Shown in pieces: positions 1-63,334 of a DNA stretch of 63,334 bases. Both the position numbers and the translations under genes were made by a program. Under the pieces are notes generated by a model, which was not told the origin of the DNA, ran no database searches, and worked only from the letters and a program-made list of their open reading frames with translations. Every line of letters starts with the position of its first letter. The stretch's first letter is position 1. Origin of the DNA: a virus. Lineage: Duplodnaviria > Caudoviricetes. The stretch lies in the IMG/VR virus record IMGVR_UViG_3300020393_000006, positions 1 through 63,334 of that record; one strand, 5' to 3'.

Positions 1-4
1 TATC

Positions 5-193
5 ATGTCCCTGTTCGTTCACATCGTTCTCTGCACCCTTCGCGTCCTCTTCGGCCTCGGACTCGTCCTTGGCCTCGGGGCTCTCTGCTACCTGACCACT
101 GTCCACGAGTCCCTGCTCGTAACCATCTGTGGTGGTATCATGGTAGGTGCTTCCATCATCGCTGGCTGGGCTTACATCTGCCACGGCGAGTAA
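5..193 (+). CDS. Small membrane protein with two predicted TM segments; first gene of the left-arm array
   Basis: 62-aa hydrophobic ORF; its RBS (GAAAGGATCAC) lies at the window end (63318-63328) if the genome is circular. Confidence 0.7.
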   Translation: MSLFVHIVLCTLRVLFGLGLVLGLGALCYLTTVHESLLVTICGGIMVGASIIAGWAYICHGE

Positions 194-269
194 CAAGACA
201 ATGCCCCTGAGCCTCTGGCTCGGGGGCTCCTTGTTGATCTGGCAATAGTGCCGAAGAAAGGATCACATC

Positions 270-545
270 ATGAACAACCACTACGACTGCCCAATCACCG
301 TCTCTCACTTCTACACCGTTGCCGAAGGCGAAAGCCTCGAGCCCATCCGCTTCTTCCCCTCGTGGGAGGACGCCAACCTCTTCGTGGAGCGGATGGAACG
401 CAAGGAGTTCCCTCGCTGCCGAGAGTGGCACAACAACCCCAACATGGCGTTCTCCGTCGTACGAGCCTCCCAAGGCTTCGTCGTCCGGTGTGATAGCCGG
501 AACGGGGAGCCTCTCCTCTACCTCGGAAGGGAACGCAATCCCTGA
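270..545 (+). CDS. Hypothetical early protein (array unit)
   Basis: ATG follows AGAAAGGATCACATC; stop lies just before the next hairpin. Confidence 0.8.
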   Translation: MNNHYDCPITVSHFYTVAEGESLEPIRFFPSWEDANLFVERMERKEFPRCREWHNNPNMAFSVVRASQGFVVRCDSRNGEPLLYLGRERNP

Positions 546-620
546 CAACAACAGCCCCTGCGCCCATGGCGTGGGGGCTCCTTGTTGATCTGGCAATGGT
601 GCCGAAGAAAGGATCACATC

Positions 621-833
621 ATGAACATCGCACAAGTCTACCTCGACGCACTCGAACTCCTCGAAACCCGTGAGGTTCCTGCACACGACCCGACAACCAA
701 GTGTCGGTACATCTTCATCCTCAATGCCTGCTGTCAGGCAGCGGGGTACGGCGACATCGGCTGGGATTGCCCAACCGAGGACGCCAAGGCCCTCAGAGCC
801 CTCGCAAAGGGCATGGTGGACCTTCCCCTCTAA
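621..833 (+). CDS. Hypothetical early protein (array unit)
   Basis: ATG at 621 after AGAAAGGATCACATC; start trimmed from ORF 582. Confidence 0.8.
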   Translation: MNIAQVYLDALELLETREVPAHDPTTKCRYIFILNACCQAAGYGDIGWDCPTEDAKALRALAKGMVDLPL

Positions 834-917
834 CAACATCTCAAGCCCCTCAGACATCGTCTGGGGGGCTCCTTGTTGATCTGGGCAATGGTGCCCCATT
901 CAGAAAGGATCACTACC

Positions 918-1172
918 ATGGACAACTTCCCATTCAAGGACATGGCCCCTCACACTCTGGGGGACATCACCTTCTTCCCAACCCCTGCCGCTGCTCAAGC
1001 AGTCTGCCTCCGCTTCCAAGCCGAGCAAGACCCTGAGGATGTCGAGGAGGGGATCCACGGGCACGGTGAAACCTTCTCTGTACAAACCTCCGCCTTCGGA
1101 TGGGTTGTGCAGTTCGACAACGGCTCTCCTTGGCCTGAGGAAGCCGTACGCGGGTACTACACCGGCAAATAA
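918..1172 (+). CDS. Hypothetical early protein (array unit)
   Basis: ATG at 918 after AGAAAGGATCACTACC. Confidence 0.8.
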   Translation: MDNFPFKDMAPHTLGDITFFPTPAAAQAVCLRFQAEQDPEDVEEGIHGHGETFSVQTSAFGWVVQFDNGSPWPEEAVRGYYTGK

Positions 1173-1213
1173 CAGGATATGCCCTCAAGCCTCTGGCTTG
1201 GGGGCTCCTGTTT

Positions 1214-1325
1214 GATACCACAACATCTGCGCAATGCGCTGGGCTTCCTCCCATGGATGTTGTTGGCACGGCCCGTGTAGGGCAGACATGTGTCCGCGTT
1301 GGACACGTGCATCCATCCCACCTGA
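1214..1325 (+). ncRNA. Candidate structured small RNA (array unit without a credible ORF)
   Basis: No RBS or long ORF; stems CAACATC/GATGTTG, GCGCA/TGCGC, GCCC/GGGC, GTGTCC/GGACAC. Confidence 0.4.
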
Positions 1326-1396
1326 GCCCCTGACCTGACGAGGTTGGGGGCTCCTGTTTGATCTGAGCAATGGTGCTCACAGAAAGGATCACTATC

Positions 1397-1846
1397 ATGT
1401 TCAAGAACCTCTCATCCGATCAAGTCGTCTCCTCCCTCGACGATTGCCGTATCCTCGACGAGATCACCCATTACAGCAACTACGAAGGTGGTGGCATGGA
1501 ATGGATCGTCCGTGCGTACCTCGACCTCGAGACTGACAGCCTCCGCTTCGTCATGTTCACCGGTCGAATGCGCAAGGAAGCCGGTGGCGGAACCAATACC
1601 GAGTTGACCGGTATCACCGAGTTCACCGACATCAACGCAGTCAAGGACTGGCTGCACGGTGCCGAGGACGCCAAGGCTGAGGTGGCCTTCGAGTCGTACC
1701 AGACCCGCAAGGGGTACGGGTACGCCTCCCACCCCTTCGGTGGCTACGTCGACGACGACGAAGGTCGGCGGCACTTCAACAAGCCTGAGGGCTGGTGGAC
1801 CTATACCATCACCCCCGGCAAACTCGACTGGTCCGAGTTGGCCTAA
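1397..1846 (+). CDS. Hypothetical early protein (array unit)
   Basis: ATG at 1397 after AGAAAGGATCACTATC. Confidence 0.85.
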   Translation: MFKNLSSDQVVSSLDDCRILDEITHYSNYEGGGMEWIVRAYLDLETDSLRFVMFTGRMRKEAGGGTNTELTGITEFTDINAVKDWLHGAEDAKAEVAFESYQTRKGYGYASHPFGGYVDDDEGRRHFNKPEGWWTYTITPGKLDWSELA

Positions 1847-1865
1847 GTTTGGGATACCCATAGGA
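1844..1865 (+). promoter_or_regulatory. Putative T7-type phage promoter, copy 1
   Basis: TAAGTTTGGGATACCCATAGGA; differs at 2 positions from the copy at 22414. Confidence 0.6.
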
Positions 1866-2046
1866 CCCCGGCTTAGGTCTGGGCTATGGCCCACCCTAAG
1901 CCCACACCATAATACCCTTTATACCCTAGGTAGACCTAGGGTATAAAGATGGTGTGGTGTCGTCACTAGCAATCCAAGCCCCTCAGCCTCTGGCTGGGGG
2001 GCTCCGGTTTGATCTGGCAATTGTGCCTCAAGAAAGGATCCCTATT

Positions 2047-2229
2047 ATGCGTTTTCGCTCCAAACTTGACCCTGCCGACCTCGCCGCCCACCTCATCAAA
2101 GAGAAGGCTGGCGACGTCGCTCTGGCAATCTCCGAACTGACCAAGGCTCTGGACTCCCAGCGCTGGATCAGTTCGGACATGATCGATGTTCTCGAGCAAA
2201 CTCGGGCCATCTTGCGTCAGCAGGCGTAA
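2047..2229 (+). CDS. Hypothetical early protein (array unit)
   Basis: ATG at 2047 after AGAAAGGATCCCTATT. Confidence 0.75.
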   Translation: MRFRSKLDPADLAAHLIKEKAGDVALAISELTKALDSQRWISSDMIDVLEQTRAILRQQA

Positions 2230-2360
2230 AACAACACATGCCCCTCAGCCTCTGGCTGGGGGGCTCCTGTTTGATTGGAAGGCAATGTGCCACCTGATCA
2301 TTTCCTAGCCCTCTACGGGGCATTCACGGCCTCGTATGGCCATCTCAGAAAGGTTCTACC

Positions 2361-2543
2361 ATGAACGACAACAATGACATCCGTATCTCCATCCTCGACG
2401 AACTCGCTGCCGCCAACGACAGCCTTCGTGTCATCGAGGACAAACTCAACCAAGACCCCAACAACTGGGAGTTGCAGGGTGAGTTTGACGAGCAGCAGCA
2501 AGTCTGCTTGGCTCTCGAGGGCGATCTCGAGAACTGGGGCTGA
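2361..2543 (+). CDS. Small acidic early protein (array unit)
   Basis: ATG after AGAAAGGTTCTACC. Confidence 0.75.
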   Translation: MNDNNDIRISILDELAAANDSLRVIEDKLNQDPNNWELQGEFDEQQQVCLALEGDLENWG

Positions 2544-2662
2544 GCCCTACAATCGCACAGGAAGCCACGCGCCCATCGAGGGCCCGTGGCTCCTTTGTGA
2601 TCATGGAAGCCGACAGGCGGCCTCCAGATCCCAACAAACCGATTCTAGAAAGGATCACTATC

Positions 2663-3001
2663 ATGCCCATTACTATGAGCGATGAACTCTTCACCTTCCA
2701 ACGTCGTGCTGCCGAAGTCGCCTTGCTTCTTCAGCAACGCATTGATGATCAACGCGAACACGATGGCAAGGACGTTGTGCCAGTCATCATGCACTGGTCA
2801 GTTCCATCCTTGTTGGAGGAACTGAAATGGGAAACAGAACGAGTCTGCAACAGGTTCAACATCAGCAACATGGCCGAGATTGCCATGTATGCGCTGGACC
2901 ACTTAGAGATGGACGGGCTGATCCCTAGCGGATTCGCCGCTGAAGCCTATCACTATGCCGGTTCCGAACTGGGATGGAAACTCGAAGGCTACAACAACTG
3001 A
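2663..3001 (+). CDS. Hypothetical early protein (array unit)
   Basis: ATG at 2663 after AGAAAGGATCACTATC. Confidence 0.8.
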   Translation: MPITMSDELFTFQRRAAEVALLLQQRIDDQREHDGKDVVPVIMHWSVPSLLEELKWETERVCNRFNISNMAEIAMYALDHLEMDGLIPSGFAAEAYHYAGSELGWKLEGYNN

Positions 3002-3088
3002 AGTCTCTCCAAAACCCTTGCCCCTCAGCCTCTGGCTGGGGGGCTCCTTTTTGATGACAATGGTGTCATCACAACAGGAGATTGGCAC

Positions 3089-3328
3089 ATGCCTATCGAT
3101 CCAAAGCGACTTGCCGCTAAGCAAGACAACGTGACCCCCGAGGTCGAACCTATCATCCGTCAAACTCTCGAGTTTACGGAAACCGAGTACGCTCGATTCA
3201 TGGATCTCATCTTGGCTGCCGACGAGGAACTCACTCCCGGCGATGCTATCATCTACGGACATTACAAAGCCGCCCGAGTGCGTGCCAAGTTGACCGACGC
3301 AGCCGCTAAGGAGGTGTCCCGTGGCTGA
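3089..3328 (+). CDS. Hypothetical early protein
   Basis: AGGAG RBS; overlaps the next ORF. Confidence 0.75.
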   Translation: MPIDPKRLAAKQDNVTPEVEPIIRQTLEFTETEYARFMDLILAADEELTPGDAIIYGHYKAARVRAKLTDAAAKEVSRG

Positions 3329-3614
3329 TGAGAAATCAACCATCCGTGACTTCGGTCGTTACTGCCAAATCATCTTCGTTCGGGCCACCAAGGCCCAGAC
3401 GGGGACTGACATTTGGCCCAAGCAGGGCGACACCCTTGAACTCTACGACAAGATCTACGAGTTCAAGTTCGTCCCTCGTCGCCTCAAGTCTGGCAAGACT
3501 GGGGTGAAGGCACTGGCTCGGAAGGTCGATGCACCTACCGAGTCAGGTCGCCATGTCGTGGCTGAGGCTGCGACCAAGACAGAGCCTCAAGCGTCTGAGG
3601 AACTGCCCTTCTAA
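3321..3614 (+). CDS. Early protein with an SSB-like acidic tail (…SEELPF)
   Basis: GTG start with AAGGAGGT RBS; C-terminal acidic-PF motif. Confidence 0.7.
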   Translation: MADEKSTIRDFGRYCQIIFVRATKAQTGTDIWPKQGDTLELYDKIYEFKFVPRRLKSGKTGVKALARKVDAPTESGRHVVAEAATKTEPQASEELPF

Positions 3615-3700
3615 AAGTTGCCCCGCTTCGGCGGGGCTCCTTTTTGATAATGGCGAACGGTTCGTCACTATCACCGTTCCAAATCCATAGGAGGATAACA

Positions 3701-5692
3701 ATGGAACTTCTCATCAAAGCCTTGGTCGCGGCTCTTTGCGACCGTCGTAACCTCGCCGACTGTAGCGAGTGGCACACCCCTCTGGCGCAGTCTTTCCTGC
3801 GTTACTTCCGAACCAAGCACTCCAGCCGCACGCTGGCACGCTGGATCGAGAAGAACGTGGGTGTCTTCGCCCTGTCTCAGCGTGTCAGCGTTGAGTCAGC
3901 AACCCGTACTCTCGCCCAAATCGTGGGCGAGTGGAAGGCAGCAGGGATCATCGACACACGACACGGATCCCGTGGTACGCTTGTGTCGTGGCCCAACCAC
4001 AGCAGAGACGACTTCATTGTCTTGCCTCTGCTGGAGGAGCCAGCCTTCCACAGTGGCGACACTGGTGGAACGGGTACACGTGCCATCTGCGGTGGTCGTC
4101 CTCACAAGTATGTGAGCGACCAGCAGAAGGAAGCCCTCGATGCCATCCAAGGCGTTGCGTACAGCGTGCATCCCAAGATGCTTTGTGCTGCACTCGACGC
4201 ACTGGAGCGTGGGCTGTTCGACGACCAACCGAAACGCAGTTTCGTCTTGGAACGTCGGGCTCTCGAGTTCGCGCTTGAGAACCTTGCAGATGGTGAATCG
4301 TACTGGTTGCCGGTGTTCATGGATCACCGTGGCCGCATCTACACCGACTCAGGTGCATTGCTGTCCTATCAAGGCAGCGATGTTCACCGTGGGCTCTGCT
4401 GGTATGCAGATGCCAAGGATGTGGATGTCCTGAGTACCGCGTGGGCGGAGTTCCTCGAATCGGCACAAGCCGAGTATGGGGTCACTCCAGACAATGCAGA
4501 AAGCATTGCACAATCTGACATCACAGACGTAACTGGCAAGCAGTTTCGTCGGATGGCTTGTGCAATCGCCGTTGTCGAAGTCATGACCACTGGTCGGACT
4601 TCGTACATCTGGCAGCAAGATGCCACATGCTCTGGCATGGGCAACATTGCCTGCATCACGCGAGACCCCAAACTTGCCAAAGCAACTGCCCTTCTGGGCA
4701 AGATTGCTTCGACCGATGACCTCTACTGCCAGACCTCCTCAGAGGCTGTCAGCAACCCACGCTACTTCCGTCTCACTGAAAGCGGAAAGCGTGACGAGGT
4801 CATCTTCGACTTCAGCCCTGCGCTGGAGGATACGCAAGTTTGGAACGAGTTGGCGGCCCGCACGGCAGCCAAACACCCAGTCATGTTGTCGTCATACGGC
4901 AGCAGTGCATACAGCCTTGCTCAGTCATGGATCGTCGAATGCGGCATCCTTGATGATGACGGTAACGTCATGTCCGAGCAAGCAGCCAAGGATCTCGAGT
5001 TCGAGGACTTGCAAATGCTGGACTGGAGTGATCTCGTTGGCTCACCAACCGCGTTCACTATCTCAACTGCCAAAGCCCGCTCCATGGGAGCAACGCCTTG
5101 GGATTGGTTCCTCTGCCTTGCAACGGCGTACCAGCATGCACTCATGCATCTGTACCCCAGCATTGGAGAGTTCCAATCGCACATGAAGAAGATTGCCCGA
5201 AAGACATTTGTCAATCACGGCAGACCTTCCTTCTGGCGTTCGTCTGTCGGTATGCTTTGTGTCTATGCACCAGTCATCGCTGGTGATGAGGACACGCTGC
5301 AGTTCACCACAAGCAATGGTCGTCAGTCACTGACCCTGCCAGTCTTCAGCACTACGCCATGCGTAGATGACAAGACACAGCGGGCGAAAGACATCGACCG
5401 CTTGTCTGGACAATCGGCAATGCCGCCCAACCGCATCCACTCTGAGGATGCTTCGATCGTGGTACTCAGTGTGCTCGACGTTGCCGATGATGGCATCGTT
5501 GTGTCGCCGATCCACGACTCGTGGGGTACGCACATCTGCAATGGTATTCGGATGCGTCATGCAGTCCGCAACGCCATGATCAGTGTGCATGGCAAAGACC
5601 TGCTGTCCAAGCAGGAAAAGGATGCGGACATGTTGCCACTCCACCGTGGAGATTGGAACCTCTTGGAGATCCAAGATACCTTGATCCGGTGA
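3701..5692 (+). CDS. Compact T7-family single-subunit RNA polymerase (RNAP-1, ~663 aa)
   Basis: DHRGRIY…QGSD, motif A QDATCSG, motif B RTAAKHPVMLSSYG, PPNRIHSED, motif C IHDSWGT; AGGAGG RBS before ATG 3701. Confidence 0.92.
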   Translation: MELLIKALVAALCDRRNLADCSEWHTPLAQSFLRYFRTKHSSRTLARWIEKNVGVFALSQRVSVESATRTLAQIVGEWKAAGIIDTRHGSRGTLVSWPNHSRDDFIVLPLLEEPAFHSGDTGGTGTRAICGGRPHKYVSDQQKEALDAIQGVAYSVHPKMLCAALDALERGLFDDQPKRSFVLERRALEFALENLADGESYWLPVFMDHRGRIYTDSGALLSYQGSDVHRGLCWYADAKDVDVLSTAWAEFLESAQAEYGVTPDNAESIAQSDITDVTGKQFRRMACAIAVVEVMTTGRTSYIWQQDATCSGMGNIACITRDPKLAKATALLGKIASTDDLYCQTSSEAVSNPRYFRLTESGKRDEVIFDFSPALEDTQVWNELAARTAAKHPVMLSSYGSSAYSLAQSWIVECGILDDDGNVMSEQAAKDLEFEDLQMLDWSDLVGSPTAFTISTAKARSMGATPWDWFLCLATAYQHALMHLYPSIGEFQSHMKKIARKTFVNHGRPSFWRSSVGMLCVYAPVIAGDEDTLQFTTSNGRQSLTLPVFSTTPCVDDKTQRAKDIDRLSGQSAMPPNRIHSEDASIVVLSVLDVADDGIVVSPIHDSWGTHICNGIRMRHAVRNAMISVHGKDLLSKQEKDADMLPLHRGDWNLLEIQDTLIR

Positions 5693-5738
5693 GCAATCAC
5701 CACAGCCACAGGGCCCCGCTTCGGCGGGGCTCCTGTTT

Positions 5739-5947
5739 GAATGCCAGGCCAAGGCTTGGCATTCTTCAAAGACAAAAGGAATCGCTACGCTCATCTTCCT
5801 TTGTCCTCGCCGGACAGGCCTTTGATGCGCCTACGGCGTTCCCCAAGCAGGCGGTATGTAGCCCGCTTCGCGGTCGGGAGGATTGCCATTGGCTGCTGCA
5901 ATCTCGTTGATCCGCAGCAGAACGTGATCCTCCTTTCTGATTTGGAT
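5739..5947 (+). ncRNA. Candidate structured RNA between the last two array modules
   Basis: Stems GAATGCCAGGCC/GGCTTGGCATTC and GACAAAAGGA/TCCTTTGTC; no RBS-supported ORF. Confidence 0.35.
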
Positions 5948-5981
5948 GTCTATGGCCTAGCGGCCATAGGCTCCTTTTTTT
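5948..5981 (+). terminator. Intrinsic terminator closing the array
   Basis: GTCTATGGCC-TAGC-GGCCATAGGC hairpin followed by TCC and T7. Confidence 0.65.
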
Positions 5982-6129
5982 GCGAGAGGGCGTTGCCCCC
6001 TCGCGCTCCCCCACCAAGGGGCTTTCCCCCCCTTGGATCCCCCCCTTCACTATCACTCGGTACCGGCCTTAGTCTAGTACTAACACCCGAAACCGTTCGC
6101 CGCACCACACTCAATACAGGAGTCTAGTC

Positions 6130-6375
6130 ATGAAATGCTTTACAGTTTATGATCTGTGCCGCGTTATTGTCGAACAAGCTGACGCTCTTGAAAGAGCCTT
6201 GAATCGTTTTGATTCTGCTCTTGAAACCCTTGACAACAACGAAATCTGCATTGCTCACCGCAACATGGATATCATCTTGACTGTCATGATGGCTCTTGCT
6301 GACGAAGCAACCGATGCTTTGGCCGACGATCCTGACATCTACAAAGATGATGATGAATGCTGGGGCGACCACTAA
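6130..6375 (+). CDS. Hypothetical acidic protein
   Basis: AGGAG RBS; TAATG overlap with the next gene. Confidence 0.75.
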   Translation: MKCFTVYDLCRVIVEQADALERALNRFDSALETLDNNEICIAHRNMDIILTVMMALADEATDALADDPDIYKDDDECWGDH

Positions 6376-6815
6376 TGATTGCCCTGCTTAGTCTAATGCT
6401 TTCAACCGGAGCTGGAAAAGACATTGTCTTGACCGATGCTAACATCGATCGGCTCCTCGATGCAATCTGGTACGTCGAGTCTGGTTGCCGCAATGGCCCT
6501 ATCAAGGGCGATGGCGGTAACGCCCTCGGCCCTTTGCAAATCTGGCGTGCCTTCTGGCAGGACGCCGTTGAGTTCTCTGGACAAGGCGGCAAGTACGAAG
6601 ATGTTGCTGACATCAAGTACGCCAAGAAGACAGTTAAGAACTACTGGACTCGGTACTGCACCGAGCGGAGAGTAGGAAGAAAACCCACCCTTTGGCACGC
6701 AGCTGTCATGGTTAATGGTGGACCTAACGCCCATAAAGCCTCGGGCAAGAAGAAGGCTAACCTTGTAATTTACTGGGACAAAGTTTGGGCCCGGTACCAA
6801 GCCCTAGGAGGCTAA
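6375..6815 (+). CDS. Lysozyme-like / lytic transglycosylase-like protein with N-terminal hydrophobic signal
   Basis: AIWYVESG and GPLQIWRAFWQDA motifs (ES plus G-x-x-QI of the lysozyme superfamily, i-type/destabilase-like). Confidence 0.75.
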   Translation: MIALLSLMLSTGAGKDIVLTDANIDRLLDAIWYVESGCRNGPIKGDGGNALGPLQIWRAFWQDAVEFSGQGGKYEDVADIKYAKKTVKNYWTRYCTERRVGRKPTLWHAAVMVNGGPNAHKASGKKKANLVIYWDKVWARYQALGG

Positions 6816-6816
6816 C

Positions 6817-7224
6817 ATGTCTGACACTGACGACAAACGATGGGCACCTGATGCCTACTTGCATGAGTTCGTTTACTTCAACAAAGACGACTTTCCTAAC
6901 GCCACTGGCAGGACCATTTGGACCTGTGGCCAGTATTACTTCCTCGTGTCATCCATCATCAACGAAGAGATGGATGCCAGTGAGACCATGGTCTTTCAGT
7001 GCAACAGCATTGGAGTGAAGACCAACGGAAGCCAAGATCTGGCCTTTTGTAATGATCCATATCCGGAAGTTTCGATGGTCAAAGAACTTGTCCAATCCGC
7101 TTACCGGACCTTGCACGAAGACAAGCTTCGTGAATCCATTGAGCACTTCGTGCGTTACGAAGCGACTCCTGATCAACTTCAAAGCATCAAGACAATGCAC
7201 ATGACCCCTAGAGTCTTTGACTGA
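6817..7224 (+). CDS. Hypothetical protein
   Basis: AGGAGG RBS. Confidence 0.75.
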   Translation: MSDTDDKRWAPDAYLHEFVYFNKDDFPNATGRTIWTCGQYYFLVSSIINEEMDASETMVFQCNSIGVKTNGSQDLAFCNDPYPEVSMVKELVQSAYRTLHEDKLRESIEHFVRYEATPDQLQSIKTMHMTPRVFD

Positions 7225-7231
7225 GGTTTAC

Positions 7232-7336
7232 ATGACTCATTTTGTTGCTGATATCATTTTAGGCCTGATCATTGCATCAGGCGTGTTGACATTCATTTAC
7301 GTGCTTTGCACATGGGATAAAGGAGATTGGGTTTGA
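7232..7336 (+). CDS. 34-aa single-TM protein
   Basis: MTHFVADIILGLIIASGVLTFIYVLC…; GAGG RBS; below the ORF-track cutoff. Confidence 0.55.
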   Translation: MTHFVADIILGLIIASGVLTFIYVLCTWDKGDWV

Positions 7337-7443
7337 TTTACATCGATTTTGAAGCTACTATCGGACCAGATCTGATTGTAACGTTTTTTCTGGCAGGATG
7401 TTTAACAGCTCTTGCTCTTTCAATTGTCAAAAAATACCACTAA
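7333..7443 (+). CDS. 36-aa single-TM protein
   Basis: TTG start with AAGGAG RBS; hydrophobic core LIVTFFLAGCLTALALSIV. Confidence 0.5.
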   Translation: MIYIDFEATIGPDLIVTFFLAGCLTALALSIVKKYH

Positions 7444-7461
7444 TTTTTAGCGGAGAAACAA

Positions 7462-7851
7462 ATGACTTACCTTGATGATTGCAATCACGAGATTGCACAA
7501 CTTCGGGCTGCTATTCGAGAGTGCTATGCTCAGTCAATGAGCTACGAAGAAGAAGGCGATATTGAAAACGCCAATGTTTATCTTGAGCAAGCTGAAGATA
7601 TTCATAAAGAACTTCGTGCAGCACTCGATTACCGAGAGCAATGCAAAGAATCATGCCGATTTGATCCTACTGACTTGGACCAATCTTATCAGCTGGATGT
7701 TCTGCTCAATGAGCTGAATGTCATGGGTAGTCAGATTGAATACTTGCAAGATGAAAATGACTTCTTGCAGGACGAGCTCACAGATGCTGAGAAAGCTGTT
7801 CAGTTTTGGAAAGATCAAGCCATCTTTCGAGAGGATCGATCCAATGACTGA
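7462..7851 (+). CDS. Acidic coiled-coil hypothetical protein
   Basis: GGAG RBS; rich in D/E. Confidence 0.75.
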   Translation: MTYLDDCNHEIAQLRAAIRECYAQSMSYEEEGDIENANVYLEQAEDIHKELRAALDYREQCKESCRFDPTDLDQSYQLDVLLNELNVMGSQIEYLQDENDFLQDELTDAEKAVQFWKDQAIFREDRSND

Positions 7852-8008
7852 AGCAGAATTTGCCTTTGAAAACGAACCATGCGAAGAAGATGTTTTCTCT
7901 TCTGGATGGTACGACACTGAATACGGGGACGAAGTTCCCGATAACGTTTATGAAAACGGAATGTACCTCGGCGACGGGGTTTGGGTTTCAGAAGATTTCT
8001 TTGGATAA
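7844..8008 (+). CDS. Small, very acidic hypothetical protein
   Basis: ATG 7844 with GAGGA RBS. Confidence 0.65.
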   Translation: MTEAEFAFENEPCEEDVFSSGWYDTEYGDEVPDNVYENGMYLGDGVWVSEDFFG

Positions 8009-8019
8009 AGGAGATTGTT

Positions 8020-8616
8020 ATGACTATCGGAAAAGAACTGGACCAAGCGTTTTACAATCTCGGTCAACGCATCACCCGCCTCGAAAAGAAAGAAGTGGAG
8101 TACCCCATCGTCAACGACTTCGTTGACAAGGAAATGGTACTCGGTATCGAGTCAGGCTTGACTTCTCAGATCGAGAGACTCGAGTGCGAGCTCAATGATC
8201 GCGTAGACCGGCTCGAAGACGACATGGGCTTTGACCCTGACGACCTGCGCTGTGACCTTGAGTCGCAAATCGAGGAAGTTTCGGACAACTGGTCTTACCT
8301 CGATGACCGCGTCGACGACATCGACTGCATGAAGATCACCGAAGACGAAGCCCGCAACATCGCTATTGATGTTGTACGGGAAGAGATCAGTGAGGTCATT
8401 AGCGACTATGTCGAAGAGGCTGTCTGCCACGAAATCAACACTCGTGCTGTTGGTTTCACTGAGTACCTCAACATGTGCGATCGAGTCAAGGAACTCGAAG
8501 ATCGCCTCAACAAGCCCACCTTGGGCGCTCGTGTCCTACGATGGCTCCGCGAAGGACCATCTGCCAAGGAGCTGGCTACTAAATGGTATGCCAGTTTGCG
8601 CCGTGCCCGTGTATGA
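8020..8616 (+). CDS. Acidic coiled-coil hypothetical protein
   Basis: ATG 8020 with AAGGAG RBS. Confidence 0.75.
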   Translation: MTIGKELDQAFYNLGQRITRLEKKEVEYPIVNDFVDKEMVLGIESGLTSQIERLECELNDRVDRLEDDMGFDPDDLRCDLESQIEEVSDNWSYLDDRVDDIDCMKITEDEARNIAIDVVREEISEVISDYVEEAVCHEINTRAVGFTEYLNMCDRVKELEDRLNKPTLGARVLRWLREGPSAKELATKWYASLRRARV

Positions 8617-8744
8617 CGCTTTAGCCTTAATCCTTTCATCCCTGTTCTTTTCAGGATTAGCTACAATTGGATGGGCATTCTATGCCTTTCCGGTTGAGTG
8701 CAATAACTTTGTAAAGCGTGTAAAACGCTTTTTCAAAAAGTAAC

Positions 8745-8985
8745 CTACTGGGTTACTGCCGCAACCTACCAAGGAGATAAGACGGCTCCCGCATCTGCAG
8801 CAATGTATGTGTAAGCCGGGCTTCTACTACTAGCCCTGACGTAACAGGCACCCCTATGTTTGTGCGTTGCGTCAGTGTCTACCTCAGGAGGGTGAAGCAC
8901 CCAGCTGTACTGAGGATATGCCGTACCCCACAGGCAATACAACAAAGGTGGGTAGCAGGGGTGCGTCTGCTAAATCAACGCACAT
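8745..8985 (+). ncRNA. Candidate pseudoknotted non-coding RNA upstream of the tRNA
   Basis: GCACCCCT(8848)/AGGGGTGC(8957) crosses TGTGCGTTG(8861)/CAACGCACA(8976); internal stems CCTCAG/CTGAGG and GGGTG/CACCC. Confidence 0.45.
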
Positions 8986-8987
8986 CA

Positions 8988-9060
8988 GGTCCCGTAGCCC
9001 AACGGTAGAGGCAGAGGACTTAAAATCCTTCCAGTATGGGTTCGAATCCCATCGGGACTA
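8988..9060 (+). tRNA. tRNA-Leu(TAA), short variable loop, no encoded CCA
   Basis: Acceptor GGTCCCG/CGGGACT, anticodon arm GAGGA-CTTAAAA-TCCTT, T-arm ATGGG-TTCGAAT-CCCAT. Confidence 0.85.
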
Positions 9061-9065
9061 CTTGT

Positions 9066-9227
9066 ATGCTTGATACACTTGTTCGGGTTATACCCGCTAT
9101 CGTTGCTGTTTTATACGGCATTACCGCACTTGGCTACGCCTTGAAAAAAGATTGGCCTTGGGCACTCGTTTGGGGATGTTATTCCCTATCAAACATTGGC
9201 CTTATTCTGGCCGCAGCCAAGGAGTAA
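9066..9227 (+). CDS. Small membrane protein
   Basis: Two hydrophobic segments. Confidence 0.55.
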   Translation: MLDTLVRVIPAIVAVLYGITALGYALKKDWPWALVWGCYSLSNIGLILAAAKE

Positions 9228-9231
9228 TCCT

Positions 9232-10470
9232 ATGGATCTTGTTAACTTCCCTCGTCCCGGCAGTCCCATGGTAGACCACATGGATTGGGATTGGGTCTGT
9301 GAGTCTGGCATGGCCGGTGGCGATAACTCTATTCAACTAGACGGCAGCACTCACTTTACTAAACCTGAAGGTGGAATGAAGTTCTTCAATGTTTATGGAA
9401 TCTACGAACAAAATGTCAAGTTAAACAACTTGGTGCGGGGTTCTGGTGTTGAGTGGTACTTTATTCCATTGAACTGCGATATGTGGGCAGACAACGATGT
9501 CAACGAAGATGAGCGTTTTGCTCTCAAGCTTCGACAGCTTCCTTGCTATTCACGTACCGGATTAGCAACTGAGATTAGTCGGGTTTCTCGAGGGTGGGAT
9601 ATCCATTACATTAGTTCCTACAAGCCACAAGAAGCAGACACCACTATGGACGAGCAGTCTAATGATGAATGGCTCGATTGGTTCTTTTACAAGTACCACA
9701 AAGACGAGGTAGTCATGGAGCAGGCTCTTGATTCCTACGAAATGCAACGAGAAGCTGCTAAATTAGACGCTGCTCCACCTGTAGGTGAGCCTGCTATTCT
9801 CAAGCTAATGGCTCCTATTTACTTTCACTGCACAGACAAGAAAGATGGAACGCCTATCGTAGTTGAAAAGCACATTCGTGCTGTATACTTTGGCTTTGAA
9901 ACTTGCATTGCAGATACAGATGACTGTATGGAAAATATTTTCTACGATACTGAATGGGCTATGGATCGTGCTCACGAAGTGTGGTGGGATGTCTGTAACT
10001 GGAAACTTATTCCGTACATTCGTGACCTTGAACTAAACGCCGAAGAAGCTAAACGAATATTCGAAGATCGTGATATTATTCACGGCGATCTTTGTATTAC
10101 TCGACAAGATATTAATCAAGATCTTTTTGACTTGTGTTATGAGGGTTGTCGAGATCTTGATAATCCAGACTATCAAGATGAAGTTATGGAGTGCTTTACT
10201 GCAGCGGCTGAGCAACTTCTTGATCACATGTGCGATATTGTTGCTCAAGGTGGTGATCTATCAGACTTTACAGATCGAGAGCTTTATAACGGTGTAGATA
10301 TGGAAGCGTGGGATTGTTACCAAGCTTTTATTTATGTTAATGAAGACATTGAAGATCTTAGAGAGCGCCTTTATTCCGTTGGCGCTGGTGCAGATTTGCA
10401 CGGAGGCAATATAGCTTATTGGAACGGAAACATTGTATGCATCGACTTTGGTGCATGCTCATCAACTTAA
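9232..10470 (+). CDS. Protein kinase-like protein (positional analogue of T7 gp0.7)
   Basis: C-terminal DLHGGN…IVCIDFG catalytic-loop and DFG motifs; AAGGAG RBS before ATG 9232. Confidence 0.6.
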   Translation: MDLVNFPRPGSPMVDHMDWDWVCESGMAGGDNSIQLDGSTHFTKPEGGMKFFNVYGIYEQNVKLNNLVRGSGVEWYFIPLNCDMWADNDVNEDERFALKLRQLPCYSRTGLATEISRVSRGWDIHYISSYKPQEADTTMDEQSNDEWLDWFFYKYHKDEVVMEQALDSYEMQREAAKLDAAPPVGEPAILKLMAPIYFHCTDKKDGTPIVVEKHIRAVYFGFETCIADTDDCMENIFYDTEWAMDRAHEVWWDVCNWKLIPYIRDLELNAEEAKRIFEDRDIIHGDLCITRQDINQDLFDLCYEGCRDLDNPDYQDEVMECFTAAAEQLLDHMCDIVAQGGDLSDFTDRELYNGVDMEAWDCYQAFIYVNEDIEDLRERLYSVGAGADLHGGNIAYWNGNIVCIDFGACSST

Positions 10471-10477
10471 GGTAAAT

Positions 10478-10753
10478 ATGGAACGTATTTATAAAAAGGG
10501 CGACATTTGTTCGTTCTATCCTAACCCTATGATTTCAGGTGAAGGTCCTCAAAAAGACTTTCAATTTGATCTCGGACTTGGCGAGATGATCCGCATGGCT
10601 CGTCTTAATGATACAGCACTTAGCTTTGCTAGTGCTAAACAAGCTGCGCGCTTAAGCAATCAAGAAGAGCCCAGCATTACTGACCGCAAGTATGCGGACC
10701 TTAAGTACCACCCTCGGTACAAGAGGCAGTTCAAAGGAGAACGTAATGGATAA
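10478..10753 (+). CDS. Hypothetical protein
   Basis: Tightly packed + strand ORF; AAGG RBS. Confidence 0.65.
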   Translation: MERIYKKGDICSFYPNPMISGEGPQKDFQFDLGLGEMIRMARLNDTALSFASAKQAARLSNQEEPSITDRKYADLKYHPRYKRQFKGERNG

Positions 10754-10970
10754 CCCTATGATCGAAGTACCAGTTACCAGTCAAGCCCAAGAAGTATACT
10801 TCTTTGAAGTCACTCCAGATATTTTGAAAGAAACTGGTGTAACTAAAGCAGAAGAACTTGTTGTTCTTATTCAAAATGGCGCAGTTCATCCTTTTGATTT
10901 TGATGGCGACTGGGACACCTGTGACAGCGAAGTTCAACACATTTATTACGAGGAAGCAAGAGTATGCTGA
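10746..10970 (+). CDS. Hypothetical protein
   Basis: AAGGAG RBS. Confidence 0.7.
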   Translation: MDNPMIEVPVTSQAQEVYFFEVTPDILKETGVTKAEELVVLIQNGAVHPFDFDGDWDTCDSEVQHIYYEEARVC

Positions 10971-11404
10971 TTACTTATCGAGAACGTGACATTGATGGCC
11001 CTGAGTTCGCTTCTTACTACTACATGTCTGAAGCTTTGGGCTCATGGACCAAACGTCCTTTGGTTCAAATTATGGAAGACGGTACCTCCACCGGAAAGTT
11101 GCAGGGCGCTAACCCTGACGCTTGTTTGTCCGCTGCTCTTAACCGTGGAGAAACAGTCTACTTGGTTGGTGAAAATCCAACTAATGCGGGCAACATCTAT
11201 GTCCCTTATACACTGAGCATGATTAACGCTATGTTTACTGAGTTCAACGACTTTTGTCGGGACACTTACAACAACAACCACTTTGAAGGCTCAGACGTTA
11301 ACACAGCACCACAACATATTCTCGCAGAGCGAGACGCTGTGGGTGCTGAGTACGCAGACATCTTTATCCAATGGCTCCTCTACGGAGAGGTGCCCTTTGG
11401 CTAA
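10964..11404 (+). CDS. Hypothetical protein
   Basis: GAGG RBS; overlaps neighbouring genes. Confidence 0.7.
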   Translation: MLITYRERDIDGPEFASYYYMSEALGSWTKRPLVQIMEDGTSTGKLQGANPDACLSAALNRGETVYLVGENPTNAGNIYVPYTLSMINAMFTEFNDFCRDTYNNNHFEGSDVNTAPQHILAERDAVGAEYADIFIQWLLYGEVPFG

Positions 11405-11600
11405 ACAGTGGGCCATTGAAGTTCACGACAAAGCCAACGTCCGTTACGTTACGGATGAGGACTACAAGACACCGGCTCTCTTCAGTCTCCGCCGTGAAGC
11501 GCAGGCTGAAGCAGAGTCTATGAACAAACTAGTTAAACAAGATATATGGAAAGTTGTTGAATGGAAACCCACGACAAAACCGAAGAAGTCCGAATCCTAA
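11397..11600 (+). CDS. Hypothetical protein
   Basis: TTG start after GGAGAGGT. Confidence 0.55.
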   Translation: MAKQWAIEVHDKANVRYVTDEDYKTPALFSLRREAQAEAESMNKLVKQDIWKVVEWKPTTKPKKSES

Positions 11601-11920
11601 AGTGCATTGACCGTGATGTACATACTTTGGTAAACCTTTGGGGCGAAGAGACTTATGTAGAATACTATACCGGAAGTAGCAAATACTTGTATGAAATGCA
11701 CTTGCCCGATTTGTATTTAACAGAGGATGAAGAGGGCGATATTCCTGAGCCAGATCCAATGCAATACTATATTATTGATCAGTGGCTGGCGGAAAAGATG
11801 ATCCAAGATAGAGATCGCCGAGATCCTGTTATGGAAACAAATGATGGTTTGCATATCTGGGTGCGATGTGGCTGTGGTTATGGGCTTTACGACGACCTTG
11901 CTAAGTACTATATGAGTTAA
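11561..11920 (+). CDS. Hypothetical acidic protein
   Basis: ORF fills the gap before the promoter and RNAP-2. Confidence 0.65.
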   Translation: METHDKTEEVRILKCIDRDVHTLVNLWGEETYVEYYTGSSKYLYEMHLPDLYLTEDEEGDIPEPDPMQYYIIDQWLAEKMIQDRDRRDPVMETNDGLHIWVRCGCGYGLYDDLAKYYMS

Positions 11921-11939
11921 GTTTGGTACACCTATAGAG
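11918..11939 (+). promoter_or_regulatory. Putative T7-type phage promoter, copy 2, directly upstream of RNAP-2
   Basis: TAAGTTTGGTACACCTATAGAG; ends in CTATAG like the T7 consensus. Confidence 0.65.
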
Positions 11940-63096: not shown

Positions 63097-63280
63097 GAGT
63101 GGGGTAAAATGGGGTCGTGTATTCAAAGCATACACTCCGCTTACGCTTCGCCTAACAGCCCCCGGTACCCCCCGCACGCGGGTCCCCCCGGCTTGGCCCA
63201 TGCCTCTGGCATGTGCCGTTCCTTTTCGATGTGTCATTCTGTCCTGTCCTACGTTGGGGCGGGAGGATGATTGCAAACCA

Positions 63281-63334
63281 CAGGACACCCACGGGTGTAC
63301 CTGCTTTTATCGATCTTGAAAGGATCACTATCAT
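63281..63334 (+). promoter_or_regulatory. Variant array module leading into ORF 5..193 across the circular junction
   Basis: CAGG-ACACCC/GGGTGT-CCTG hairpin, 8-nt spacer, GAT at 63312, then GAAAGGATCACTATCAT. Confidence 0.7.

Follow-up and report, generated by a model that had tools for sequence, protein, structure and literature searches.

A repeated hairpin and T-rich signal before the early genes of an uncultured marine T7-like phage

The source phage is an uncultured marine T7-like virus with a near-identical hairpin and T-rich signal before each small early gene, and the question is what this repeated signal does there. The window, which is the whole stretch of DNA analysed (63,334 nt), opens with ten small early ORFs on the + strand between 5 and 3614 (5-193, 270-545, 621-833, 918-1172, 1397-1846, 2047-2229, 2361-2543, 2663-3001, 3089-3328 and 3321-3614), the last two of which share a single cassette. 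None of the ten matched PHROGs at E 0.01 or reached the Pfam cut-off, and by these comparisons all ten are classed as ORFans. The last gene of the array is RNAP-1 (3701..5692, +), a 663-aa single-subunit RNA polymerase, one of three RNAP-like genes in the phage. The cargo had been described in the first-pass annotation as unrelated ORFs of 60-663 aa, and this size range was confirmed.

Copies of the module and their positions

The motif GGCTCC-N5-GAT (GGCTCCNNNNNGAT) has 10 exact + strand matches, all at 225-3648, compared with a mean of 0.36 and a maximum of 3 in shuffles. Together with two degenerate copies, at 5729 (GAA replaces GAT) and 5970 (a T-run without GAT), these make up the 12 copies of the first-pass annotation. 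GGCTCC is invariant in 25/25 copies and GAT nearly so, a constancy for which a plain terminator has no need. A covariance model trained on 13 copies, as had been proposed (module 5 being outside the training set), recovered the element on the + strand of the early arm and confined it there, bar one weak match at 16413; a partial match at 59172-59190, in coding sequence, was below threshold (E 0.36).

All modules lie on the + strand. Module 1 (203..269, 64.8 bits) consists of the first hairpin (HP1) at 203-227, the tail TCCTTGTT and GAT at 236-238, followed by hairpin 2, GAAAGGA and the ATG at 270. Modules 2 (553..620, 59.5 bits) and 3 (844..917, 59.6 bits) have HP1 at 553-579 and 844-870 with loops CAT and ATC, GAT at 587-589 and 878-880, and ATG at 621 and 918, respectively. 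Behind the GAT (1214-1216) of module 4 (1181..1323, HP1 1181-1205, 62.7 bits) lies a structured unit, about 110 nt long, that holds neither an ORF nor a ribosome-binding site. Module 5 (1324..1396, 36.5 bits; HP1 1324-1353 with a 4-nt loop, GAT 1360-1362) continues through hairpin 2 into the core TCACTATCA at 1389-1397 and the ATG at 1397. Module 6 (1977..2046, 66.4 bits) has HP1 at 1977-2003, GAT at 2011-2013 and ATG at 2047, and it is preceded not by a stop codon but by a class B promoter and a long-hairpin region (1847-1965). In module 7 (2240..2360, HP1 2240-2264, GAT 2273-2275, 72.4 bits), hairpin 2 (2273-2300) is followed by two further hairpins before the ATG at 2361. Module 8 (2564..2662, 12.7 bits) has a divergent HP1 (2564-2590, with a C-C mismatch and a 5-nt loop), GAT at 2599-2601, hairpin 2 and the core TCACTATCA at 2655-2663, with ATG at 2663. 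Module 9 (3020..3088, HP1 3020-3044, GAT 3053-3055, 71.1 bits) carries a 7-bp hairpin 2 and AGGAG before the ATG at 3089. In module 10 (3620..3700, 31.7 bits), a short HP1 (3620-3637, TTCG loop) and GAT at 3646-3648 are followed by a hairpin 2 with TCACTATC as its 3' arm (core at 3665-3673), then AGGAGG and the RNAP-1 ATG at 3701.

Behind RNAP-1 the hairpin-GGCTCC-T-run combination stands in tandem and gene-less at the end of the early arm. Module 11 (5708..5764, 18.8 bits), with a variant HP1 and GGGGCTCC-TGTTT-GAA, has a strong second hairpin at 5739-5764 and no gene behind it; in the series of tandem stops with which the arm ends, it would come first. Module 12 (5948..6006) comprises a hairpin at 5948-5971, GGCTCC, T7 and a hairpin at 5982-6006, with neither GAT nor a gene behind.

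At the other end of the window, the variant already noted at 63281 proved to be real: the left-end element (63281..63334, +) has a hairpin at 63281-63303 that leads through CTTTTATC to GAT (63312-63314), with CCTGCTTTTATC at 63300-63311, and continues through GAAAGGATCACTATCAT into the ATG at window base 5. Its CCTGCTTTTATC is invariant in the relatives L118, L119 and L122. Upstream of it, a weaker copy was found by the covariance model at 63187-63231 (10.2 bits, E 2.1), with an HP1-like hairpin (63196..63230, +) of loop TCT followed by GTTCC-TTTTC-GAT.

The distance between the stop codon and HP1 is 5-20 nt in nine of the ten modules behind an ORF and about 130 nt in module 6, so that the described closeness of stop codons to the next hairpin holds for all but the latter.

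Structure of the hairpins, the tail and the leader

The HP1 stem was described as usually 11 bp with a loop of 3-5 nt. Seven of the 12 window copies have a stem of 11-12 bp and a 3-nt loop, while the stems of modules 10 and 11 are 7-9 bp, both with TTCG loops, and that of module 12 is 10 bp. Loop sequences include TCT, CAT, ATC, TGAC, TTCG and ATCGA. Pairing is kept in 167/167 cells, with two-sided changes at 5/11 pairs (16 copies, in an alignment fitted to the covariance model); 0/500 shuffles matched this, and slid controls paired at 41-70%. The claim that stem sequence varies under conserved pairing was thus borne out, and so was the bias towards + strand G-T pairs: the 15 distinct hairpins contain 162 Watson-Crick pairs, 14 G-T, no A-C and one C-C mismatch, which is common to module 8 and its copy in the relative L115. 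HP1 behaves as a sense-strand RNA hairpin, the wobble pairs reflecting selection on the sense and not on the template strand.

The N5 spacer is T-rich, as reported (81 T, 17 G, 2 C and 0 A in 20 window-clade copies). GAT lies 8 nt past the stem in 10/12 window copies and 17/20 clade copies, and not always, as first stated. The tail keeps a fixed distance to the HP1 stem base, not to the loop, and pairs with the sequence flanking the stem on its upstream side, a degree of pairing reached by only 2 of 20000 permutations. The mean duplex energy was -5.31 kcal/mol for cognate flanks and tails and -3.78 for non-cognate ones; TGCTT with AGCA and TCCTGT with ACAGGA are examples, and the lower stem is visible in folds. 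A generic terminator scan of positions 1-20000 gave 46 sites against 17.0 expected, with HP1 copies in the top nine rows.

Hairpin 2 begins at GAT or within 1-2 nt of it in most modules. Part of the GAT conservation is explained by hairpin 2, at whose base GAT pairs with an ATC further downstream, and GAT is regarded as a candidate start site only. In the offset control, mean energy was -9.84 at offset 0 and -11.12 at offset -1, so a stem that starts exactly at the G of GAT was not demonstrated. Compensatory changes occur in both HP1 and hairpin 2, including two two-sided changes in module 9 hairpin 2 relative to the L115 ortholog.

The core TCACTATCA has five exact copies in the window, all on the + strand and each just 5' of genes. 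With one mismatch allowed, no genome-wide enrichment was found (21 against 17.3 expected). A TCACTATCA(C) core on the + strand at 6047..6055 heads the middle region, and it stands in the same place after RNAP-1 in L113/L114, L116 and L118. The core is family-wide among these phages, and in more distant relatives it forms the 3' end of a 20-nt T7/Syn5-like promoter. No sigma-70-like sites were found on the + strand of positions 1-6000.

Relatives and cassette turnover

The cassettes had been proposed to be exchangeable, and comparison of relatives agrees with this. In L114 exactly module 8 and its gene are missing, and in an RNA contig of another relative the module-5 leader is joined to the gene at 2663; the differences thus amount to one cassette lost and one leader swapped. 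The module consensus is unchanged in a phage with just 44% identity in RNAP-1. Gene-less hairpins (modules 11 and 12 and three in L114) lie within a conserved non-coding stretch, and a stem based on C5/G5 with a T-run is also found behind the capsid gene (32422-32451) and behind two genes of the low-GC relative L118.

L090/L022, an unrelated T7-like phage that encodes an integrase and an RNAP of 796 aa, has five modules of the form hairpin-GGGGCTCC-TGTTTGAT (three copies) or hairpin-GGGGCTCC-TGCAAGGAT (two copies). Behind each of the five lies a box resembling the Syn5 promoter as given in PMC3950665. Strong hairpins also stand 5' of AGGGCACCACTCACTATCAC in L119 (four copies) and L116 (two), and one L119 hairpin, about 85 nt ahead of the promoter, ends in GGGGCTCC and a T-rich run.

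Stop and restart and the alternative readings

On balance we lean towards a two-part module, with a terminator or attenuator first and a restart region behind it, since L090/L022 and more distant relatives place such hairpins 5' of ordinary single-subunit-RNAP promoters. In the sense RNA, HP1, CUCC and the U/G-rich tail would together be a factor-independent terminator or attenuator to which a phage-type RNA polymerase responds, the tail pairing with the A/C-rich flank right behind the stop codon into a lower stem, and they would also serve as the 3'-end hairpin of the upstream message. The stretch between GAT and the start codon, hairpin 2 included, would carry the restart signal and leader, and the T7-type core TCACTATCA is the best candidate for that signal. 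The structure, the selection on the sense strand, the pairing of flank and tail, the distribution of copies and the differences between the cassettes of relatives are shown by the data, whereas termination, the position of any start site and the assignment of polymerases to signals are what we infer here. The strand bias, the lower stem, the T-rich tail at a fixed 8 nt, the gene-less copies and the family-wide stop shape argue for this reading, as do the separate promoters in L090/L022, L119 and L116, TCACTATCA itself, the lack of sigma-70-like sites in the region scanned and the cassette turnover. The earlier interpretation is partly supported: the modules are real and structured, and a combined terminator/promoter or processing site belongs to the right family of ideas, but the N4-type component is not supported.

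Some observations sit less easily with stop and restart. TCACTATCA is degenerate in five gene-bearing modules (1, 2, 6, 7 and 9), for a classical terminator the U-tract is weak, being interrupted (UCC comes first), module 6 has no preceding gene, and the role of hairpin 2 is left without explanation.

A possible but clearly less probable reading is that of dual use, in which a single-subunit-RNAP promoter, spanning about -14 to +3 with its start at the G of GAT, is made up of the HP1 3' arm, CTCC and the T-rich N5; the same bases with the 5' arm would terminate the upstream transcript, and hairpin 2 would be a 5'-terminal stabilising stem of the new message. The block GGGGGCTCC-N5-GAT (about 17 nt, fixed spacing) is the only strictly conserved one across all ten gene-bearing modules and the sole element before every one of their cassettes; its size is that of a single-subunit-RNAP promoter, which also speaks against stop and restart. 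In a register of our own reading, a start at G puts CTC at -9 to -7, like the T7 promoter TAATACGACTCACTATAGGG quoted in PMC3950665. The onset of hairpin 2 near GAT, the similar layout of the left-end element (hairpin, 8 pyrimidine-rich nt and GAT) and one relative's RNA contig that terminates 2 nt 5' of the module 5 GAT are consistent with dual use, as is, by elimination, the presence of three RNAP-like genes for two ordinary T7-like motif classes (TCACTATCA and TTTGGnnnACnnATAG, the latter with three copies). However, GGGGCTCC-TGTTTGAT also occurs in L090 with a different ordinary T7-type RNAP and its own Syn5-like box, and two of the five L090 copies have a spacer that is one base longer and not T-rich. 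Tandem copies occur without genes, N5 and the upstream flank covary although a melting region would not require this, and L118 and L122 keep the C-terminus of the giant protein described below without having the module.

Somewhat less probable still is processing, whereby one long early transcript from the left-end element would be cut by a host or phage endonuclease in the single-stranded inter-hairpin linker. Of the two ends so created, HP1 would shield the 3' one and hairpin 2 the 5' one, comparable to the RNase III sites that separate early genes in T7. Two hairpins around a fixed 8-nt linker of invariant sequence, an upper stem, internal loop and lower stem of about 16-18 bp together, and selection on the sense strand would all suit a cut site, and some RNA contigs span HP1 into the next gene (1979-2107 and 2577-2658, for example), but these libraries may contain DNA. 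The contig ends (1358, 1979, ~2358, 2577, 2609, 3047 and 3672), which come from assembled contigs of such libraries, fit no single model. A cut site does not need the strong bias of T over A in the tail, the tandem copies closing the arm fit stops better than cuts, and relatives have clear promoters behind the hairpins.

The analogy with coliphage N4, which the first-pass annotation favoured, is improbable. HP1 would be extruded from supercoiled DNA, and the injected giant protein would bind the template-strand hairpin and start just downstream. The giant ORF (4245 aa) has no cysteine, carries DGSQNG and R-x3-K-x7-YG, and matched PF00940 with E 1.8e-4 and 20.9 bits, below the cut-off of 22; the Atlas clusters closest to it, at 0.87, are RNAP families, a lead only. 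It looks weakly like an RNAP-domain carrier, and nothing was found that links it to the modules. The suggested reading by a virion RNAP is not supported. The loop has 3 nt in 7/12 copies; its common form, read on the template strand, is AGA, whose middle base is a purine. By our reading, the conserved T-G wobble would appear on that strand as a C-A mismatch, above which 5 bp of top stem remain, and the N4 register would put the start at the tenth base (G) of the 3' arm. According to PMC4496689, N4 uses a hairpin on the template strand, with specific bases in loop and stem, and starts 11 nt from the loop centre; for LUZ7 the distance is 13-14 nt (PMC9163698). Here, in contrast, 21 nt separate the HP1 loop centre from the G of GAT (18 nt in short-stem copies), which is held to the stem base. 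Loop and upper stem vary freely, whereas recognition in N4 is specific at -11, -10 and -8, and 14/14 wobble pairs favour the sense strand. The module is also missing from the relatives that retain the giant protein's C-terminus.

The least credible reading gives the element no part in expression and sees in it a recombination scar or a palindrome of REP or MITE type that has spread across the intergenic gaps. Mutual similarity, intergenic location and coincidence with cassette indels would suit it, but orientation is strictly one-stranded, the copies keep a fixed place between stop and start codons, both hairpins show compensatory changes, the consensus is the same in the phage with only 44% RNAP-1 identity, and a 19-nt probe against 185,579 species genomes gave nothing comparable, only three chance matches without hairpin context.

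With stop and restart, the repeated cassette would insulate each ORFan early gene. The closest known kind is the PeSL cassettes of T4-like phages, which likewise offer homology for swapping, and here, too, the repeated cassette would provide homology for the exchange of cassettes between phages.

The hairpin array and its genome

The motif GGCTCC-N5-GAT, which follows the first hairpin (HP1) of each module, was found as 10 exact matches in the window, all on the + strand between 225 and 3648 (0.36 expected), and degenerate copies at 5729 and 5970 bring the total to the 12 counted in the first-pass annotation. The variant that it had placed at 63281 is real and was joined by another, so that two left-end variants (63196-63230 and 63281-63314, both +) carry an HP1-like hairpin, the tail and GAT. 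A covariance model trained on 13 uniform HP1 copies recovered copies outside the training set at 1317-1363 (36.5 bits), 3611-3649 (31.7 bits) and 5713-5740 (18.8 bits). Its only returns outside the early arm of the window were one weak match at 16413 and a sub-threshold partial match inside the coding sequence at 59172-59190. In the replication region, at 16421-16452, an HP1-like hairpin (CCTCCAGCA TAG TGCTGGGGGG) is followed by CTTGATGGAG and ATG, with a model score of 13.8 bits (E 0.16).

Covariation, proposed earlier as a check on the array, was evaluated on this model, and both pairing and two-sided changes exceeded shuffles. In an alignment that had been fitted to the model, 167/167 cells of 16 copies were paired and 5 of the 11 pairs changed on both sides, which 0 of 500 shuffles matched; slid controls for the pairing reached at most 70%. 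The lower five pairs (GCCCC/GGGGC) are constant and the upper six covary. The array is real, well conserved and structured.

The window takes in the whole virus record (63,334 bases), which is classed as linear with a completeness estimate of 100%. Its long ORFs are all on the + strand and follow a T7-like order (primase/helicase, DNA polymerase, ribonucleotide reductase, portal, capsid, tail tube, T7-type terminase). Two of them encode clear single-subunit RNA polymerases, RNAP-1 (3701-5692, +, 663 aa), which is the last gene of the array, and RNAP-2 (11944-14448, +, 834 aa). The giant ORF at 46191-58928 (+, 4245 aa) had no PHROG, Pfam or PDB sequence match as a whole. It contains zero cysteines, the strings DGSQNG and R-x3-K-x7-YG, and RNAP motif A/B-like strings at residues 1415 and 1489. 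The piece at 49641-52190 scored E 1.8e-4 against PF00940, at 20.9 bits under the cut-off of 22, and the closest Atlas clusters of the ORF are RNAP families (0.87), which is a lead only. HEVGH is present at residue 2978. Homologs of the last 500 residues, at the C-terminus, are encoded at the 5' ends of two metagenome loci of relatives, L118 and L122 (E 1e-32 to 1e-37), despite a weak module match or none there.

The G+C content is 56-58% in the early arm (1-6000) versus about 37-48% elsewhere in the genome, and that of the RNAP-1 gene ranges from 32% to 61% across relatives. The protein of 6357-6815 is 82% identical to its counterpart in the relative L116, and RNAP-1 is only 36% identical to RNAP-1 of the same locus. 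The early arm looks to have been swapped between lineages. TATCAT is found at both record ends (1-6 and 63329-63334), and joining the ends with this overlap produces GAAAGGATCACTATCATG, a standard leader, ahead of the ORF at 5-193. Judged by these termini, the record is probably a circularly permuted assembly cut within a module.

HP1 as a predicted stop signal

Among 15 distinct HP1 hairpins, 162 Watson-Crick pairs, 14 G-T pairs, no A-C pair and one C-C mismatch were counted. The wobble pairs, estimated to represent about 6-7 independent events, would be A-C mismatches on the template strand. The count of 14 G-T against 0 A-C bears out the sense-strand fold of the first-pass annotation and argues that HP1 is under sense-strand selection.

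The class I (T-phi type) terminator of T7 RNAP is described as a stable stem-loop followed by a U-run (bioRxiv 10.1101/2021.01.11.426313). HP1 forms a stable G+C-rich stem-loop in the sense RNA, with stem-only folding energies of -16.6 to -25.2 kcal/mol and z-scores of the module folds of -2.9 to -4.9. A U-rich tract comes right after the stem: over 20 copies, N5 is composed of 81 T, 17 G, 2 C and 0 A, is preceded by TCC and has its position set by the stem base. The tract is interrupted, and termination may therefore be only partial. HP1 lies 5-20 nt past the stop codon in 9 of the 10 modules preceded by an ORF, and this position downstream of genes is held even with no gene behind. A generic terminator scan of 1-20000 gave 46 sites versus 17.0 expected, and HP1 copies occupied the first nine rows.

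The A/C-rich flank between the stop codon and HP1 pairs with the T/G-rich tail (TGCTT with AGCA, TCCTGT with ACAGGA, TGTCTGAT with ATCAGCAG). Cognate flank-tail duplexes averaged -5.31 kcal/mol versus -3.78 kcal/mol for non-cognate ones, which was reached by 2 of 20000 permutations, and the lower stem is visible in whole-module folds, often with the stop codon within it. HP1 thereby extends further than in the first-pass annotation. Since the flank and tail pair and the folds include both, an RNA spanning upstream flank, HP1 and tail must exist.

The 437-nt stretch after RNAP-1 (5693-6129) is non-coding; it aligns with the relatives L113 and L114 via the hairpins alone, and its indels are not multiples of three. 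It contains modules 11 and 12, the L114 equivalent has three hairpin-GGCTCC-T-run elements, and a gene stands behind none of these. The same stretch includes AAAAGGAATCGCT-CGCTCATCTTCCTTT and terminates in TTCACTATCACTCGGTACCGGCC. A C5/G5-based stem with a T-run was also found behind the capsid gene (32422-32451) and behind two units of the low-GC L118, and this stem base looks like a general stop shape of the family. The first half of the module is best read as a stop signal, at which termination is predicted.

The Shine-Dalgarno sequences of the downstream genes (AAGGA, AGGAG) are complementary to the invariant CUCC(U) behind HP1, and in the fold of module 9 the upstream flank UCUCC, not the tail, pairs with GGAGA. 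By such pairing, read-through transcripts might mask the next ribosome-binding site.

The source for class I gives class II signals (ATCTGTT) as short and sequence-specific, with a U-tract downstream as an aid and termination 6-8 nt further on; rrnB T1 belongs to both classes, and class II termination by T7 RNAP is said to be abolished by any base change (bioRxiv 10.1101/2021.01.11.426313). The module resembles the T7 terminators in uniting a hairpin, an invariant short sequence and a T-rich run. It differs from them, as they appear in the cited part of that source, in that its invariant sequence is CTCC-TKTTT-GAT instead of ATCTGTT and its U-run is interrupted; in addition, there are 12 copies in 6 kb versus one or two per genome. 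A T7 class II signal was rejected for the tail, which resembles ATCTGTT without matching it.

GGCTCC is unchanged in 25 of 25 copies, which a plain terminator would not require. GGGGGCTCC-N5-GAT, the sole element ahead of all 10 gene-bearing cassettes, matches a single-subunit-RNAP promoter in its size and fixed spacing, and the left-end element is built to the same plan; the block also occurs in gene-less copies and, with a different RNAP, in L090, a locus of another T7-like phage. Because of the invariant GGCTCC, the promoter-like block and the left-end layout, two rivals to a stop signal with a restart region behind it are kept. The first, rather improbable, is a true dual-use element, terminator and promoter in the same bases. 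The second, for which we see a still smaller chance, is a processing site. In T7, the RNase III sites of the early genes are irregular intercistronic hairpins, and a hairpin is left at the 3' end of each message; to our knowledge, they have no near-identical shared sequence, no T-rich tail and no promoter-like cores behind them. The module hairpins are likewise intercistronic in a T7-like early region, and a processing role for them is a prediction only.

The second half of the module and candidate promoters

A second hairpin, HP2, is always present after GAT, with a variable sequence. It is kept by compensatory change, since GATGACA/TGTCATC of module 9 corresponds to GATATCA/TGATATC in the relative L115, with two pairs altered on both sides; the HP2 stems of modules 7 and 8 are also unlike those of the orthologous modules in L114 and L115. 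HP2 of the long-leader modules has TCACTATC as its 3' arm and the complement of this as its 5' arm, which thus starts with GAT; the short modules pair GATC with the same four bases inside GGATCAC. Since GAT pairs within HP2, its invariance is partly structural. An HP2 starting exactly at +1 was not supported by the offset control, as closed stems at GAT were no better than at offsets of -1, -2 or -5. The wobble count of HP2 (174 Watson-Crick, 12 G-T) carries no information, since the folding program has no means of returning A-C pairs.

Scanning the + strand of 1-6000 for sigma-70-like sites gave none, the first one lying at 6125, and host sigma-70 promoters were set aside for the early arm; this arm is apparently free of host-type promoters. 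A sigma-54 reading of TGGCA-N5-TGCC in HP2 was discarded, the spacing being wrong as judged by eye. TCACTATCA, a T7-type core, has exact copies at 1389, 2655, 3665, 6047 and 63325 (+), each just ahead of a gene. It is kept after RNAP-1 in L113/L114, L116 and L118, and in L119 and L116 a 20-nt consensus has it as its 3' part. The core is degenerate in modules 1, 2, 6, 7 and 9, and with one mismatch allowed it is not enriched genome-wide (21 found versus 17.3 expected). Since five exact + strand copies precede genes and the core is conserved after RNAP-1 in relatives, TCACTATCA is the best candidate for a family-wide promoter core.

A second T7-like motif, TTTGGnnnACCnATAG, has three exact copies at 1848-1863, 11922-11937 and 22418-22433, one of them just ahead of RNAP-2. 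Behind the first copy, a long hairpin dense in CCTAGG/CTTAGG words occupies 1866-1965, with like stretches at the matching place in L119 (1830-1950) and L118 (7965-8045), and could be a replication origin or a protein-binding array. CCTGCTTTTATC is unchanged in four relatives, low-GC ones included (window 63300-63311, L118 6714, L119 112, L122 6963), 20-55 nt ahead of the first early gene, and three of the four have it behind a hairpin. It is a better candidate than the clade-specific modules for the first promoter after DNA entry. At 7510-7546 of L118, a strong hairpin with a T-rich tail (z-score -7.6) holds a TCACTATCAC core in its 8-nt loop; a transcript begun in this loop would be without the 5' arm and so escape the stop. 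Between modules 4 and 5, the stretch 1217-1323 has neither ORF nor ribosome-binding site and folds into several hairpins; it would be a small RNA if modules start transcripts, and otherwise a structured spacer.

Parts of the early arm were found as assembled contigs in three metatranscriptome runs from two studies. Their ends at 1358, 1979, ~2358, 2577, 2609, 3047 and 3672 are those of assembled contigs, and no single model accommodates them all. The left ends at 3672 and ~2358 match the TATC/A register and that at 1358 matches GAT, none of them decisive. Adapter read-throughs (one just past the GAT of a relative's module 7, two within genes) are uninformative either way, as are the uncovered parts. 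Contigs also break at repeats, as in a DNA run at 248-276 and 598-628.

Relatives, known systems and meaning

RNAP-1 has 7 relatives in the protein database, and a metagenome scan with it gave 35 loci, of which 10 (L113-L122) are clear orthologs. HP1-GGCTCC-N5-GAT is kept in L115 (RNAP-1 identity of 71%) and in L113/L114 (44%); the HP1 consensus of these loci matches window modules 6, 7 and 9 exactly. L116 and L119 (36-38%) are without the module and have strong hairpins ahead of a 20-nt T7/Syn5-like repeat, AGGGCACCACTCACTATCAC (4 copies in L119, 2 in L116); one L119 hairpin, about 85 nt ahead of this promoter-like repeat, has GGGGCTCC and a T-rich run at its end. In the low-GC relatives L117-L121 the module model had no match, and in L122 one weak match (14.3 bits, E 0.43).

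The module recurs in a quite different uncultured T7-like phage with a 796-aa RNAP and an integrase (L090; L022 has identical modules). At 6500-9150 (- strand) of L090, five near-identical modules of about 120 nt precede early ORFs, each with a GGGCACC box, a hairpin, GGGGCTCC, then TGTTTGAT (3 copies) or TGCAAGGAT (2 copies), and then GGCACCCGACAAGG. The latter is close to the Syn5 promoter, which is given as ATTGGGCACCCGTAA with the start at the next G (PMC3950665). In L090, GCTCC can pair with a GGAGC just past GAT. On these layouts, the hairpin lies upstream of a separate candidate promoter of ordinary type in three lineages.

Nucleotide searches with window 1-6000 and with the L090 array against 50,697 phage records gave no match, and neither the RNAP-1 protein nor its alignment found a relative among viral contigs. 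The pattern GGGGCTCCTNNTTGAT occurred in 104 stretches of viral contigs, with repeated hairpin copies only in L022 and L090; the other multi-match loci were attributed to chance. A 19-nt HP1 probe gave 3 matches in species genomes, none in a hairpin context, and thus no pointer to a host.

The comparison of relatives supports the recombinable cassettes of the first-pass annotation through loss, leader swap and relocation; among the RNAP-1 orthologs, the module itself is kept in L115 and L113/L114. Orthologs of the genes at 2361 and 3321 are present in L114, which lacks module 8 and the gene at 2663; L115 has both of the latter. In an RNA contig of a relative, the module-5 leader (42/42 bases identical) is fused to the gene at 2663, and the HP1 variant GCCCTCAAGCC stands ahead of an ORF-less unit in the window and ahead of RNAP-1 in L115. 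For all 10 small early ORFs no protein family was found (ORFans).

This turnover recalls the PeSL (promoter-early stem-loop) of T4-like phages, a stem-loop terminator with an early promoter and a Shine-Dalgarno sequence beside ORFans, which drives modular shuffling (PMC2839356; PMC4122927). Both are small repeated composite elements running from a stop to the next start, with a G/C-tract stem-loop as terminator or attenuator and then a promoter and Shine-Dalgarno sequence, terminator and promoter being putative in the modules. Both have ORFan early genes on their flanks, and both serve for indels and swaps of cassettes among relatives. In 10 modules, a stem-loop, a candidate promoter and a Shine-Dalgarno sequence fill the stop-start gap in repeated form, and the ORFan neighbors with their indels and swaps are found here as well. 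The sigma-70 early promoter is not: PeSLs, as the cited portions of those reports describe them, belong to myoviruses and use a sigma-70 consensus promoter and the host polymerase, whereas the window has no sigma-70-like site on the + strand of 1-6000 and its phage, of T7-like type, encodes two or three polymerases of its own and has a hairpin-GGCTCC-T-rich-GAT block followed by a second hairpin. Promoter and terminator activities have been measured for PeSLs and are predicted for the modules. The module is best read as a terminator-restart cassette behaving as described for PeSL in another type of phage.

The first-pass annotation had likened the modules to the hairpin promoters of phage N4. 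The hairpin that N4 vRNAP recognizes lies on the template strand and has a loop of 3 bases with its centre at -11; the enzyme makes contacts at -11, -10 and -8, opens the base of the stem at -5/-4 and begins RNA synthesis at +1 (PMC4496689). In LUZ7, early transcription begins 13-14 nt away from the centre of the hairpin (PMC9163698). The phages share several hairpin elements ahead of early genes, a T-rich spacer and G downstream, and a giant cysteine-free protein, in the window a possible virion RNAP with motif-like strings. On the template strand, a conserved T-G pair becomes a C-A mismatch, leaving a 5-bp stem and a 3-nt loop with G at the N4 start position. However, relative to the N4 and LUZ7 promoters as set out in the cited parts of these papers, the parallel fails in geometry, in loop and stem bases, and in strand. 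The HP1 stems are mostly 11-12 bp instead of 4-7 bp (5-7 bp for the N4-type geometry), and GAT is always 8 nt from the stem base, whereas its distance from the loop centre is 21 nt, shortened to 18 nt for modules 10 and 11, with no fixed 11 nt or 13-14 nt to the start. Upper stems and loops (TCT, CAT, ATC, TGAC, ATCGA, TTCG, TAGC) vary, the consensus template bases would be A at -10 and C at -8 where N4 is specific for G at both, besides a purine at -11, and the wobbles indicate the sense strand. In addition, the gene order is T7-like, not N4-like. An N4-like mechanism is unsupported, and we regard an N4-type promoter as very improbable.

No cultured phage is closely related. The best match to RNAP-2 (30% identity) is in Alteromonas phage vB_AspP-H4/4 (Foturvirus), a marine T7-like phage with two annotated RNAP genes, near the left end and before the structural genes. 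It contains no GGCTCC-N5-GA motif and no module array, and tblastn (E 1e-3) of 11 early-arm and two downstream window proteins against it gave no match. Hairpin, terminator, intergenic or multiple-RNAP wording does not occur in PMC11880802, and a narrow literature search found no such cassettes for T7-like phages.

On present evidence the module array is not a new kind of system. A bolder proposal, which we hold to be improbable, is that the modules are DNA-phage 'gene junctions': an element of about 35 nt would stop the polymerase by its RNA hairpin and restart it 8 nt on via the 3' arm and CTCC-T5-G. A virion polymerase, once injected, would then move along the entering genome by hopping between cassettes, with each ORFan a self-contained and swappable unit. 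If true, the junction would embody a stop-start logic that the literature searched does not report for T7-like phages; the junction recurs in a second, unrelated marine T7-like phage.

For the terminator-restart cassette, sequence-specific recognition is likely, since the element is near-identical across polymerases of 44% identity and recurs in an unrelated phage. It would provide a compact, very well conserved stop, and possibly start, signal for non-model single-subunit polymerases. In T4-like phages, composite terminator-promoter cassettes whose promoters are of host type are a demonstrated driver of gene shuffling (PMC2839356; PMC4122927). The same design in a marine T7-like phage, whose early genes seemingly depend on its own polymerases, would make the cassette principle a general one and not a peculiarity of T4.
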